Source of the DNA: an uncultured Chlamydiae bacterium
Lineage (GTDB): Bacteria > Chlamydiota > Chlamydiia > Chlamydiales > JAJFMB01
Assembly (NCBI GenBank): GCA_963696295.1
Contig: CAVOJR010000001.1
Location: 608,001-672,000 of the forward strand
Direction: 5' to 3'
Length of the DNA stretch: 64,000 nucleotides
Shown here: positions 16,938-19,984 of the stretch, one piece after another
Layout: every line of letters starts with the position of its first letter
Position numbering within the stretch: position 1 is the stretch's first letter
Translations under genes and position numbers: made by a program
Notes under the pieces: generated by a model
Told to the model about the DNA's origin: nothing
Databases searched by the model: none
The model's input: only the letters and a program-made list of their open reading frames with translations

Positions 16938-16995
16938 CTTGACAAAGTCATATTAGCGTGAAAGCCCCGGGAGCTTTAAAAACTTTGTCAAGTTA
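16935..16995. repeat. 61-bp element with perfect 14-bp terminal inverted repeats between convergent genes (bidirectional terminator or MITE-like)
   Basis: TAACTTGACAAAGT (16935-16948) / ACTTTGTCAAGTTA (16982-16995); inner AAAGC...GCTTT hairpin; each arm contains the TAA stop of one flanking gene. Confidence 0.8.
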
Positions 16996-18228
16996 AGTCA
17001 AATAAAGATCGTAGGGCTTTTCGATACCGCCTATATCATAAATGCTCACCGGCAGTACAATTCCTTTCATTTTCACGCGCAGATGCCCATTAACCCGGAC
17101 AGAGTCCTTGACGCATTGATAGGTAGACTCGGAAAGCAGCACCTGCCCCCCAAAGGTAAAATCCTGGATGCGGGAAGCCAGGTTCACCGGGGCCCCGATG
17201 GCGCTATAATTCATCCTCTTTGAAGATCCTATATTTCCAACCACAGCGTTACCTGTATTGATCCCGATCCCCATGGAAAGCTGGGGCAGGCCGTTTTTGA
17301 GATTTTCTGCATTAACTTCTTTCATGGCCAGCTGCATCTCTATAGCGCAGGCAACGGCTCGCAAGGGATCGTCCTCATTCGTGCATGGGGCGCCAAAAAG
17401 GACGAGCAAAGCATCGCCAATAATGGCATCTATCGTGCCCTTGTATTTTAAAATAATATCGATCATCCTGCTATAATAAGCATTCAGCATGGCGACGACG
17501 CTCTCGGCAGGCAAGGTCTCGGAAAGGGGCGTAAAACCTCTTAAATCGCTAAATAAGGCGGTAATGTGGCGAATCTCTCCCCCCAGTTTTAGAGGTTCGT
17601 CGGCCAGCAGCAGATTTTCCACGACTTCATCAGACATATAGCTGCTGAAGACTTTGCGTATGAACTCATTGCGCACTTCAAGAGTCTGCTTGGCCTGAGT
17701 CAGTTCCCGGTTGAGATCTTTCATTTGCTGTTCCAGTTTGACCACGTCGACCAAATTTAATTGATCCTGGGCCAGGGCGGCCAGGTCTTCGAATATTTTC
17801 AGCTGCTCCGGCGTCATGTCTCTCGGAATCTTATCGACCACGCATAGAGTGCCGACTTTGTATCCCTCAAGCGTCTTGAGGGGATGCCCGGCATAAAACC
17901 GCGTATGAGGATTATCCACAACCAGGGGGCTATCGGCGAAGCGGGGATCAAGCAAAGCGTCGGGGATGACCATAGGTTCATCCTGCTGAATGGTATGCGT
18001 ACAAAAGGAGATGCTGCGCTCCGTCTCCGTCGCCTCTACATTTATCCTGGATTTAAACCATTGGCGGTTCACATCTATAAAGGCAATATAAGCAGAAGGA
18101 ACACTGAGCAGAAGGGCGGCAAGGCGGGTAATGCGGTCAAACCGCTCTTCGGGGGAGGTATCTAATATGTTCAGCTCATATAAAGCTGCGAGGCGCAATA
18201 CTTCTTCATTTTGCTCTTGATCAGACAT
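16993..18228 (-). CDS. GAF-domain class III nucleotide (adenylate/guanylate-type) cyclase
   Basis: N-terminal GAF (RLAALYELNILDT.PEERFDRITRLA, SFCTHTI, RFYAGHPL), coiled coil, cyclase motifs FSDLRGFT, IGDA, GIGINTG, GNIGS, VNLASR. Confidence 0.92.
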   Translation of the reverse strand: MSDQEQNEEVLRLAALYELNILDTSPEERFDRITRLAALLLSVPSAYIAFIDVNRQWFKSRINVEATETERSISFCTHTIQQDEPMVIPDALLDPRFADSPLVVDNPHTRFYAGHPLKTLEGYKVGTLCVVDKIPRDMTPEQLKIFEDLAALAQDQLNLVDVVKLEQQMKDLNRELTQAKQTLEVRNEFIRKVFSSYMSDEVVENLLLADEPLKLGGEIRHITALFSDLRGFTPLSETLPAESVVAMLNAYYSRMIDIILKYKGTIDAIIGDALLVLFGAPCTNEDDPLRAVACAIEMQLAMKEVNAENLKNGLPQLSMGIGINTGNAVVGNIGSSKRMNYSAIGAPVNLASRIQDFTFGGQVLLSESTYQCVKDSVRVNGHLRVKMKGIVLPVSIYDIGGIEKPYDLYLT

Positions 18229-19984
18229 TAATACCCCCTATTTTATTCTGCCAGTCAGCCAAAGACTCTTTTGCCGCGGCATAACCTCTTTCAAACAGCT
18301 CATCCCTGCGGCTCAAATCCAATAAGGCAAAACCCTCAAGGTCGGGCTTGATGTATATATCGCAAAGCTTGACGTTTTCTTTATTTTTAAAGCTCGAAGC
18401 CACCAGCATTCCCCGTAAGAAAATATCGGTAATCGAAGGCATTTCCAGCTTATGAAATACTTTTGCCAAAATGATTTTCGGCCAGGTCAATTCCAGGGGA
18501 TAGTTATAGGAGGATTCTCCGGGGCTGAGATTCCCGATATCGATGGCCACAATTCTGCCCTGCCCTTCAAAATAATCCTTTAGCAGATCGGCGGGCAAAT
18601 TATTCATCACCCCGCCGTCAACCAGCACCATTCCCCCATGATGAACCGGCGGATAAACTCCGGGAATGGAAATACTGGCGCGCACGGCTTTCCATAAAAG
18701 ACCCGCATCCAAATGCACCTCGCTGGAACTGGTCAAATCGGCAGCCACACAGCAAAAATAACGGGGCAAGTCTTCTATCGGGCGATCCCCCAAAAGCGAT
18801 TTAAGAACGGTGGTAATGCTTCTGGAGCTTAAAAGGGATAAGAGAGGGATGGTGTATTCTTTAAAATTTGTCTTCCGCACCACCTCTTCTTGCAAAGCCT
18901 GATAATCCTGATAATCGCGGGAAATCGACAAAAGCGCAGCATTAATGGCCCCGGAGCTCGTCCCAGCGAAAGCATCGATGGGAATCTTCTCTTCAAAAAG
19001 ATACTTAATAGCTCCCGCCTGGGCCAGTCCGCGGCTGCCCCCGCCGCTCAAGACGAGGCCGACCGCTGTGCCGTTGATATGGCGCAGGAAACGGGCGATG
19101 TCTGAGGGCTCCGCAAGTCCCACATGGAAATGCTTAAAGAAACTTAAAGTTCCAAGCCAGGTTTTTGCAAAGTGCGATTGGACTAAGCCCGGATAAATCA
19201 AAACCAGCATTTTCCTGATTTCAGGGTGGACTGCGCGGGGGTCATTCAGCAGACGCACCAGCTCTTCATCAAAATCGGCAGGGGTGTCGCCCGGGGCTAT
19301 GACCATGATGCGATCAGCCATATCCAGGCAAATATCGCACCACAACTTATCGCGGTAATCCACCTCGTAAAAGAGGTAATCGTACCGGCTTTCCATTTCC
19401 TGCAGCTTTCCGGTCAATTGATCCGGACCAATTGAGGCGTCGAAATCAGATCGTCTGATAATTTTGTAACGAAAACGGGAATCAAAGGCTTGCTGCAGCT
19501 TATCAAAGAATTCTCTCGCGTCAACCTCATCATTGGCCCGCAGGCAGACGAGGTTCATGTGATGCATGACGTTCCTGTCTTTCAATGTCTGCTGCAGGCG
19601 CAGGGTGATAATTTTGCACACTTCAAATAATACGTCCGGGTGCTCCTTCCATACCCGCTGAAAATGCTCCTGATCGAGTTTCAATAGTAACGAATCGCGC
19701 ATAGCCAGTACGGTCGCCGTGCGCGGCGTTTGGCTGATCAGGCCCATCTCTCCGACGGTTTGGCCGGGTCCCACCTGTCCCACGGTTTTCCCGCTGCTGA
19801 TTTTCACCAGCAAGCGCCCCCTCAATAAGACATAGAGGGAATCGGAAGAGTCTCCCTGCCGGACTAAAATCTCTCCCGCCTGAATTTCCACCGGCTTCAT
19901 GGAGGCATAGACCGCCTGCAACTCCTCCCAGTTTAAGGTCCGGAATAGCTCACAGGCTTTTAACTGTTCTAGAAAATCGACCAT
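18221..19984 (-). CDS. cNMP-binding-domain patatin-like phospholipase (NTE-like architecture)
   Basis: N-terminal cNMP-binding cassette GEMGLISQTPRTAT; patatin motifs GGGSRG, GTSSG (nucleophile Ser), ASISIPG, DGG (catalytic Asp). Overlaps the cyclase start by 8 nt. Confidence 0.92.
   Translation of the reverse strand: MVDFLEQLKACELFRTLNWEELQAVYASMKPVEIQAGEILVRQGDSSDSLYVLLRGRLLVKISSGKTVGQVGPGQTVGEMGLISQTPRTATVLAMRDSLLLKLDQEHFQRVWKEHPDVLFEVCKIITLRLQQTLKDRNVMHHMNLVCLRANDEVDAREFFDKLQQAFDSRFRYKIIRRSDFDASIGPDQLTGKLQEMESRYDYLFYEVDYRDKLWCDICLDMADRIMVIAPGDTPADFDEELVRLLNDPRAVHPEIRKMLVLIYPGLVQSHFAKTWLGTLSFFKHFHVGLAEPSDIARFLRHINGTAVGLVLSGGGSRGLAQAGAIKYLFEEKIPIDAFAGTSSGAINAALLSISRDYQDYQALQEEVVRKTNFKEYTIPLLSLLSSRSITTVLKSLLGDRPIEDLPRYFCCVAADLTSSSEVHLDAGLLWKAVRASISIPGVYPPVHHGGMVLVDGGVMNNLPADLLKDYFEGQGRIVAIDIGNLSPGESSYNYPLELTWPKIILAKVFHKLEMPSITDIFLRGMLVASSFKNKENVKLCDIYIKPDLEGFALLDLSRRDELFERGYAAAKESLADWQNKIGGINV

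Follow-up and report, generated by a model that had tools for sequence, protein, structure and literature searches.

The window, i.e. the whole 64,000-nt stretch of DNA that was analysed, carries a lipase gene and a cyclase gene that, together with an antiporter gene, form a 5.1-kb insert in a chlamydial type III secretion cluster. The features of the locus are as follows:

15699..16937, plus strand: sctQ, type III secretion C-ring gene and left flank of the insert (NCBIfam TIGR02551, 142.6 bits against a cut-off of 100.8).
16935..16995, no strand: perfect 14-bp inverted repeat; both sctQ and the cyclase gene have their stop codon in its arms.
16993..18228, minus strand: soluble class III nucleotide cyclase of 411 aa (Pfam, PDB alignments, Foldseek, homolog census).
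18221..18228, minus strand: overlap of the lipase stop and the cyclase start (ORF coordinates).
18221..19984, minus strand: NTE/PNPLA6-type patatin lipase of 587 aa (Pfam, alignment, homolog census, structure model).
20031..21323, plus strand: cation/proton antiporter (Na_H_Exchanger) of 430 aa, the third gene of the insert (Pfam).
21324..22074, no strand: AT-rich gap of 751 bp (GC 0.38) after the antiporter gene, with pieces of three dispersed repeats.
22075..23559, plus strand: Ser/Thr kinase with a SpoIIE-like tail and right flank of the insert (Pfam, synteny), which we take to be chlamydial pkn5.
23694-26867, downstream of the kinase gene: secretin gene.

Three Pfam domains of the lipase exceeded the curated cut-offs, namely cNMP_binding (residues 32–115), NTE_Ploop (156–292), which the earlier note had overlooked, and Patatin (310–468). 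This order of cNMP-binding, NTE P-loop-like and patatin domains is the one that defines NTE/PNPLA6 proteins. The oxyanion glycines (GGGSRG, 314–319), the GxSxG serine (GTSSG, 341–345) and the DGG aspartate (456–458) are all present, with the catalytic S343 and D456 kept in 120 of 120 homologs. The cNMP-binding pocket is intact (G78, E79, R88 and T89), and its first three residues are unchanged across the 20 closest lipases. The structure model has a pLDDT of 82, and hydropathy analysis revealed no transmembrane segment (maximum 1.16). A lipase profile matched animal NTE/SWS proteins at ~1e-98 over 91–93% of the query, and the family encompasses 5,310 clusters at E ≤ 1e-30. A quick tree of 57 selected rows placed the lipase in a clade of its own (SH-aLRT 99), separate from 13 further chlamydial NTE proteins; the lipase is the only patatin found in the genome. 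To judge by its sequence, it is a bacterial NTE/PNPLA6-type protein of the short rather than the animal form, for which family membership predicts (lyso)phospholipase activity and cNMP binding, and for which gating by cNMP is a candidate property.

The 8-nt overlap with the cyclase gene reads ATGTCTGA, and a purine-rich, SD-like run directly precedes the cyclase ATG, which together make translational coupling of lipase and cyclase likely. The inverted repeat at 16935..16995, present in one copy according to a genome search, folds as a hairpin on both strands (fold z of −3.9 and −4.8) and is probably terminator-like. Promoter scanning of the locus returned 12 hits versus 6.8 ± 2.6 in shuffles, and terminator scanning 5 versus 6.8.

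In the cyclase, GAF (26–153) and Guanylate_cyc (220–389) domains exceeded the curated cut-offs and are joined in the AlphaFold model by a 56-residue helix (140–195), followed by a transducer-like FSSY motif at 194–197. The class III fold, the two metal aspartates and the Asn/Arg transition-state pair are all present, and each of 120 homologs retains D228, D272, N349, R353 and K388. The enzyme is nearest to the physiological cyclases Cya2 and CyaB, with a GAF domain nearest to that of a diguanylate cyclase; comparison with Cya2 gave a Foldseek TM of 0.97 at 53–54% identity for the catalytic domain (2w01) and 217 bits in the PDB alignment. The base-selecting site consists of Ala268, which is Glu in Cya2 and Lys in adenylyl cyclases, plus Asn340 and Ser342. 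According to the available part of PMC5995499, this residue of Cya2 sets the use of GTP (Glu) or ATP (Lys), the E488K mutant being an adenylyl variant (6fht). As Ala268 is neither, the cyclase is not assignable as guanylyl or adenylyl by motif. Across 120 homologs, the position is occupied by Ala (46), Ser (35), Glu (29), Gln (6), Asn (3) and Lys (1). A total of 119 homologs are 48–74% identical over the full length, 25 of the 30 organism-named matches are from Legionellaceae, and one cluster of relatives occurs on at least 1000 Legionella pneumophila contigs. A quick cyclase tree comprised 43 rows, none of them PycC. The genome encodes three cyclases in total, including this one.

Here, 5,137 bp separate the two flanking genes, sctQ and that of the kinase, as against less than 500 bp in all 28 informative chlamydial relatives, in which the insert genes are missing from this site. 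Spacing was assessed at 29 other chlamydial loci, 27 of them by tblastn and the 28th by ORF map, the 29th being without upstream DNA. In codon use and GC3, the three insert genes all fall at the 49th–86th percentile of the genome, which fits long residence. In four low-share runs of DNA sequencing reads, possibly not independent of the assembly, nine listed pieces fall within the insert with 0–1 differences and one listed piece spans the lipase/antiporter gap, whereas neither insert junction is crossed by any listed piece. The listing of runs that contain this DNA named none of RNA. The antiporter gene is divergent from the lipase gene, with 46 bp between them; a search of 400 further genomes from the phylum gave one relative of the antiporter at E ≤ 1e-50 (G313; 50% identity), which has no lipase or cyclase within 1.5 kb. 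In the AT-rich gap, the repeat piece at 21496–21550 is one arm of a palindromic MITE-like element, and the others lie at 21876–21961 and 21955–22032; genome-wide, the three repeats account for 52, 5 and 8 blastn pieces, self matches counted. Rfam gave no match.

These results bear out the description in the earlier note of two co-oriented genes overlapping by 8 nt, of a patatin with intact motifs behind a cNMP-binding domain, and of a GAF/coiled-coil/class III cyclase with intact Asp/Asp/Asn/Arg, all within an accessory insert. As to the mobile-element debris it had reported, the pieces of three dispersed short repeats are there, but no transposase- or integrase-sized ORF was found in the insert (ORF list, Pfam). 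Similarly, searches of the insert and its flanks with Pfam, PADLOC and NCBIfam retrieved no defence-island genes, integrase or transposase, the flanks consisting of secretion-apparatus genes, and the enrichment in defence islands that the note had envisaged is not seen at this locus.

Nor did the expected conserved adjacency emerge at the lipase-side loci covered. A cyclase adjoins neither of the two closest lipases with known context; it does so at one of 14 other chlamydial NTE loci, where it is non-orthologous, and at 3 of 160 loci of the wider family, none with GAF. Cyclase density near family lipases (three in 392 kb within 1.5 kb) was not clearly higher than further out (five in 1,099 kb), and the chance probability of one adjoining case in 14 is 0.03–0.11 under assumed backgrounds. 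A profile search found no lipase–cyclase fusion among 308 lipase homologs, and PF00211 was absent from 40 longer lipase-family proteins, which is weak evidence. Conversely, the lipase profile matched nothing in 112 cyclase-side loci, whose cyclases are not full-length homologs. Viral contigs yielded only catalytic-domain matches (best 48%) and no full-length cyclase homolog, plasmids none over 80% coverage, and 251 genomes from the same class as G405 no cyclase match at E ≤ 1e-75, in a search without positive control. Two genomes of the same family (94% and 81% complete) matched neither protein. No contigs of equal size were shared by the 119 cyclase matches and 25 close-lipase entries. The name Legionella was absent among the 120 listed lipase matches, and one named close lipase carries an alphaproteobacterial MAG label. 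A second chlamydia (G277) has, in one run, genes for a kinase-AAA-GAF-HATPase, an NTE lipase, a receiver-cyclase and a metallo-β-lactamase hydrolase; its lipase and cyclase sit in other clades than the window pair, which argues that the coupling arose there separately. Besides the pair, this genome encodes another two cyclases and another four proteins with a cNMP domain, which means that the circuit is not necessarily a private one.

The explanation we favour, with a probability of roughly 0.5, is that a lineage-specific operon uses a cNMP to tune locally the lipid turnover of the cell itself. This small operon would serve physiological signalling and would have been acquired, or put together, in this lineage alone. 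Its GAF domain would sense a small ligand or the cell state, and the signal would pass through the coiled helix to switch the dimeric Cya2-like cyclase, which would make a 3′,5′-cyclic nucleotide; cAMP, alone or mixed with cGMP, is the most likely product. On binding to the one cNMP domain of the NTE-type lipase translated alongside, this product would shift the membrane association or activity of the lipase and thereby tune how the cell turns over (lyso)phospholipids of its own membrane or uses host-derived lipid. This explanation builds on the domains, intact catalytic and binding residues, gene overlap, insert and family membership described above, from which we infer co-transcription, product, ligand binding, effect on the lipase and substrate. 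In its favour, the only patatin found in the genome adjoins one of only three cyclases, the cyclase is nearest to Cya2 and CyaB, the lipase belongs to the NTE family with an intact cNMP pocket, and a separate lipase–cyclase operon exists in the second chlamydia. The absence of the pair elsewhere in the covered loci and of fusions counts against it, as does mammalian PNPLA7, for which the accessible text of PMC5704489 reports that cNMP analogues changed location and left hydrolase activity largely unchanged. A variant that we regard as unlikely is that the Ala/Ser-site clade of cyclases, found throughout Legionellaceae and here in a chlamydia, produces cGMP or a pyrimidine cyclic nucleotide instead of cAMP, and that this product directly and selectively switches on the overlapping lipase, as a private channel insulated from cAMP.

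Possible, albeit rather doubtful, is that three genes for ordinary enzymes, acquired separately, became neighbours where the secretion cluster tolerates insertions. The lipase would then respond to the general cNMP pool, if it responds at all, and any of five cNMP receptors could be served by the cyclase. The differing affinities of cyclase (mostly Legionellaceae) and lipase (no Legionella among listed matches), the lack of equal-size contigs, the solitary antiporter relative and the repeat pieces marking the site all fit such an origin. It is countered by the 8-nt overlap with its SD-like run and by the coming together of a maker and a reader of cNMP in a genome with three cyclases and one patatin, for which chance is unlikely, as well as by the independent operon in the second chlamydia; moreover, both genes may have had a shared donor.

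We consider it very improbable that the pair is an abortive-infection system of the Pycsar/CBASS kind, in which phage would switch on the cyclase and the lipase would destroy the membrane. The maker-plus-reader logic in two genes, the patchy distribution, the lineage-specific insert and a base pocket that departs from the canonical one, as it does in immune cyclases with altered product, would suit this role, and the preprint 10.64898/2026.08.12.744502, as far as its available text goes, reports that cGMP acts as an anti-phage signal. PADLOC also returned weak matches to PycC, to the cNMP domain of PycTIR and to the CBASS phospholipase, but these are partial, domain-level and far below Cya2: the best PycC model reached 77.9 bits, PycTIR matched lipase residues 23–137 only, and the CBASS lipase model scored 21.7 bits against a cut-off of 200. 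The same preprint, in the part available, assigns immune cyclases to a STAND-fused clade and to that of Pycsar, the effectors of which are CNBD-TIR or 3TM proteins; the words patatin, phospholipase and GAF do not occur in its main text. Furthermore, the cyclase clade is well conserved over its full length, full-length homologs are absent from the viral contigs and plasmids searched, and among 36 other window proteins PADLOC gave only one family-length defence match, to an AbiEi antitoxin at a distance of 14 kb, and otherwise matched GTPase, Fic, SNF2 and SMC domains. In the genome, nothing exceeded the cut-off for an Apyc1-type phosphodiesterase. Of the sensor–messenger–lipase circuit put forward in the earlier note, the membrane-remodelling half is plausible, and the abortive-infection half, with its combination of Pycsar and CBASS logics, is unsupported by the model scores and the secretion-gene flanks. 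Just as improbable is export of one or both proteins by the neighbouring type III system, whereby the lipase would act on host or inclusion membranes, reading host cAMP, and the cyclase would disturb host signalling. Other bacteria are known to use both patatins and cyclases as effectors, the pair sits inside the secretion cluster, and the cyclase relatives are concentrated in amoeba-associated Legionellaceae. Nevertheless, the pair lies on the opposite strand to the apparatus genes and is missing from the site in all 28 relatives, its proteins have no N-terminal extension over their homologs, with folded domains beginning within the first 10 residues, and the VpdC model was matched by the patatin core only (41 bits of 1000).

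On balance, the locus resembles a routine means of regulating membrane lipids that is specific to its lineage; it does not look like a new antiviral system and is not evidence for one. The role of cNMP domains in NTE/PNPLA6 proteins is unsettled according to the accessible portions of PMC9025805 and PMC5704489, and a soluble, one-sensor NTE-type lipase with a candidate cognate cyclase offers a compact test case; if true, the private channel would directly demonstrate gating of catalysis by an NTE-family cNMP domain. The cyclase, for its part, represents a clade of considerable size in which the base-selecting residue is neither Lys nor Glu, so that one product assignment would extend to many genes annotated as adenylate/guanylate cyclase.

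Among known systems, the GAF-cyclases of Legionellaceae are full-length homologs of the window cyclase (49–59% identity) with the same Ala/Ser at the base-selecting site; annotated as adenylate/guanylate cyclases, they are uncharacterised as far as literature searches show, and differ in having no close Legionella NTE partner among the listed lipase matches. CBASS CapV/CapE share the patatin fold and intact dyad with the lipase (Foldseek E 1e-12), although PlpD ranks above CapV. CapV is a single-domain patatin activated by 3′3′-cGAMP (PMC12480259, in its available part), whereas the window lipase has three domains, and none of the four insert ORFs encodes a cGAS/DncV-like nucleotidyltransferase (Pfam, PADLOC, NCBIfam). 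The lipase was accordingly rejected as a CapV, being a three-domain NTE-family protein at 21.7 of 200 bits. Pycsar and Pucsar likewise place a class III cyclase gene next to that of a cNMP-binding enzyme; their effectors are CNBD-TIR or 3TM proteins, whereas here an NTE-type lipase accompanies a GAF-regulated Cya2-type cyclase outside any defence neighbourhood. The cyclase is probably not a PycC: it scores 217 bits against Cya2 versus at most 77.9, over a partial match, against PycC models, and no PycC chain is among its 35 PDB sequence matches at E ≤ 1e-10. Synechocystis Cya2 shares the metal and transition-state residues and the transducer-like motif, but has CHASE2 and a membrane span in place of the GAF sensor, and Glu, Lys and Gly where the window cyclase has Ala, Asn and Ser. 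Finally, the NTE family (PNPLA6/NTE, PNPLA7, Drosophila SWS and bacterial 'NTE family protein') combines cNMP, PF24179 and the patatin Ser-Asp dyad, as does the window lipase. Animal NTE has three cNMP sites and an N-terminal membrane anchor (PMC9025805, in the portion accessible), in contrast to the single site and anchorless chain of the window lipase, which is further set apart from the family by its overlapping cyclase gene.

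The window (C1:608001–672000) belongs to a source genome of 3.43 Mb in two contigs. The gene pair described in the earlier note was confirmed, with the lipase and cyclase ORFs sharing 8 nt and an SD-like run preceding the second (cyclase) start. The block comprises the following features:

16935–16995: perfect inverted repeat of 14 bp, single copy, with the stop codons of two converging genes inside
16993–18228, minus strand: cyclase ORF, 411 aa
18221–19984, minus strand: lipase ORF, 587 aa
third in the block, on the strand opposite to the lipase and beginning 46 bp from it: cation/proton antiporter gene

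Pfam assigned cNMP_binding, NTE_Ploop and Patatin to the lipase, and GAF and Guanylate_cyc to the cyclase, each above its cut-off. All catalytic motifs named in that note were found, and they are invariant in 120 of the 120 listed homologs of each protein.

By family the lipase is NTE/PNPLA6, in a short bacterial form. A profile built from its 21 closest sequences matched animal NTE/SWS at ~1e-98 over 91–93% of its length; at E ≤ 1e-30 it matched 5,310 clusters. A fold search ranked PlpD first, followed by CapV/CapE at 16–22% identity; identity as a CBASS lipase was rejected, with a score of 21.7 bits on the corresponding model (cut-off 200). Nineteen relatives were found at 46–55% identity, followed by a drop to 39% or less. 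Among the 399 further genomes of the phylum that were scored, 14 had an NTE-type match (E < 1e-50, 27–37% identity). Because 13 of these 14 chlamydial proteins lay outside the window lipase clade (SH-aLRT 99) in a quick tree, from which the truncated L023 sequence was left out, the gene did not simply descend together with the copies in other chlamydiae. Among the 20 closest sequences, phosphate-binding residues G78, E79 and R88 do not vary. For PNPLA7, the available part of one study describes cNMP analogues shifting the protein to lipid droplets, with hydrolase activity largely unchanged (PMC5704489); for PNPLA6, the evidence in the accessible text comes from cells with a rise in both level and activity (PMC9025805). 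In G147 (loci L147 and L021), a genome of the same order, the immediate neighbours of the NTE gene are a further run of secretion-apparatus genes and a transposase-like ORF, as labelled from reading the translations.

The closest relative of the cyclase with a solved structure is Cya2, a guanylyl cyclase (217 bits, TM 0.97, 53–54% identity), and PycC models scored 77.9 bits at best. Among 8,000 candidates scored, 2,285 were homologs at E ≤ 1e-40, the best 119 being full-length GAF-cyclases of 48–74% identity, with Legionellaceae accounting for 25 of the 30 organism-named ones. The L. pneumophila cluster held 221 members, one of its sequences occurring on at least 1000 contigs, as a stable chromosomal gene would. 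Within the phylum, the best of the matches listed covered the catalytic domain only (36–47%). Class III cyclase domains are common there (loci L041–L069), occurring in 226 of 400 genomes at E ≤ 1e-15, several with two tandem copies, but in none of 29 genomes scored from family f4.

The base pocket is an unexpected feature of the cyclase. The equivalent of Cya2 Glu488 is Ala268, a site occupied in 120 homologs by Ala (46), Ser (35), Glu (29), Gln (6), Asn (3) or Lys (1); Ser occupies position 342 in 94 of 120, and position 340 is Gln in 65 and Lys in 52. Gln-Tyr-Ser resembles the adenylyl pattern of mammalian and bacterial adenylyl cyclases, and this likeness favours cAMP, or relaxed purine use, as the putative product, the motif by itself not being decisive. 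In the available portions of the sources, a single residue decides the substrate choice of Cya2, GTP with Glu488 and ATP with Lys (PMC5995499), substitutions at base-pocket sites have graded effects that are hard to predict (PMC4215837), and pyrimidine cyclases rely on different sets of residues (PMC11224242).

The three-gene block lies inside a type III secretion cluster, flanked on one side by sctQ (TIGR02551 above cut-off) and on the other by the genes for the kinase and the secretin. The gene at 8105–9907 carries the three CdsD-specific Pfam domains, which mark the genome as chlamydial. The kinase is present in 35 of 40 related genomes, and 29 loci besides that of the window were examined for spacing: the sctQ–kinase distance was below 500 bp in 27, sctQ abutted the kinase in the 28th, and one locus was without upstream DNA. 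The tight spacing in these 28 loci identifies the 5.1-kb block as an insert specific to this lineage. It splits, at 16938–22074, an sctQ–kinase–secretin run that is contiguous elsewhere, and a separate promoter is presumably required here for the genes downstream. The insert genes resemble residents in GC3 (49th–70th percentile) and codon score (59th–86th percentile) among 2,001 ORFs. The insert begins at the left with the single-copy hairpin and ends at the right with an AT-rich gap of 751 bp. The reported mobile-element debris amounts to pieces of three chromosome-wide repeats in this gap, and no integrase or transposase was found. One repeat, at 21496–21550, is palindromic and MITE-like with TATA ends (52 blastn pieces across the chromosome); two more short families lie at 21876–22032.

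The site is not a defence island. PADLOC, run on 32 window proteins besides the four insert ORFs, gave as its sole family-length defence match an AbiEi antitoxin outside the insert, 14 kb off; the other matches were two Fic proteins and, at domain level only, housekeeping GTPase, SNF2 and SMC proteins. The two tandem Fic-domain genes and the AbiEi-type antitoxin occupy 31656–34433, with no AbiEii partner seen adjoining. Large ORFs at 56827–61686 and 1827–4226 (1,619 and 799 aa) had no Pfam or PADLOC match at 1e-5.

Conserved adjacency of the two genes was not found in the lipase-side loci that could be reached. These numbered 160 (80 kept of 577 and 80 kept of 446 confirmed candidates); a class III cyclase was present in eight and was the next gene in three, and none of the cyclases had a GAF domain. 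Two of the three adjacent cyclases were long, one of these being visibly fused to a P-loop NTPase. Cyclase density was not clearly higher near the lipase (3 in 392 kb) than further out (5 in 1,099 kb, near-duplicate loci included). In the two loci of the close lipase clade, the downstream gene was unrelated in one and a nucleoside hydrolase in the other. No contig size was common to the 119 cyclase matches and 25 close-lipase entries, compared by the longest contig per entry, and 17 of the first 20 entries lay on contigs large enough for both genes. No lipase–cyclase fusion occurred among 308 lipase homologs. A lipase–cyclase–hydrolase operon, made from different clades, was found in one of 14 other chlamydial loci (related genome G277), a result with a chance probability of 0.03–0.11 under assumed backgrounds. 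Its co-oriented run (L343:2434–12018, contig C70) consists of a kinase-AAA-GAF-HATPase frame of 1,837 codons, an NTE-type lipase, a receiver-adenylyl cyclase whose base site is Lys, and a metallo-beta-lactamase hydrolase. Together they are a candidate for a full cAMP circuit that makes, reads and erases the messenger. In G238 (L345:213–8375, contig C13), an NTE lipase is followed by a cNMP-domain/CAAX-protease-like protein, and an Apyc1-like hydrolase lies 5 kb from this region (PF23023, 112 bits, cut-off 50).

The best explanation, with a probability of roughly 0.5, is that the GAF-regulated cyclase would produce a purine cNMP, which the co-translated lipase would bind; lipid turnover would be tuned through changes in the association of the lipase with the membrane or in its activity. 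The chief rival, that the genes are chance neighbours at a tolerant insertion site, is less probable and to be taken seriously: the three insert genes differ in their affinities, and the genome holds two further cyclases and a further four cNMP proteins. The latter (loci L005, L006, L008 and L009) comprise two fusions, one with a ZIP-like transporter and one with an NDH-2-like oxidoreductase, and two small proteins that stand alone. Gating of the lipase by a private non-cAMP messenger is unlikely. Injection of the pair as effectors, which location alone favours, is rated lower still and as improbable as anti-phage defence, for which the two-gene logic and the odd base pocket speak, whereas family membership, conservation and context are all contrary. 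The accessible part of a recent survey puts immune cyclases in a STAND-fused clade and in a Pycsar/Pucsar clade with TIR or 3TM effectors (10.64898/2026.08.12.744502). The cyclase–messenger–lipase logic of the earlier note stays plausible as physiological signalling; its defensive role was not supported.

No paper describing a bacterial cyclase–NTE operon, or what this cyclase clade produces, was found in mostly open literature with thin coverage of subscription journals, including the available parts of PMC10865251 and PMC12480259. Two defining features of CBASS were looked for in the window pair and neither was present, which rules out membership. The pair also differs from Pycsar/Pucsar in lacking the TIR or 3TM effector type, and on its domain content it is not assigned there. 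In its workings it would resemble a class III cyclase of ordinary physiology, coupled to an enzyme that acts as cNMP receptor.
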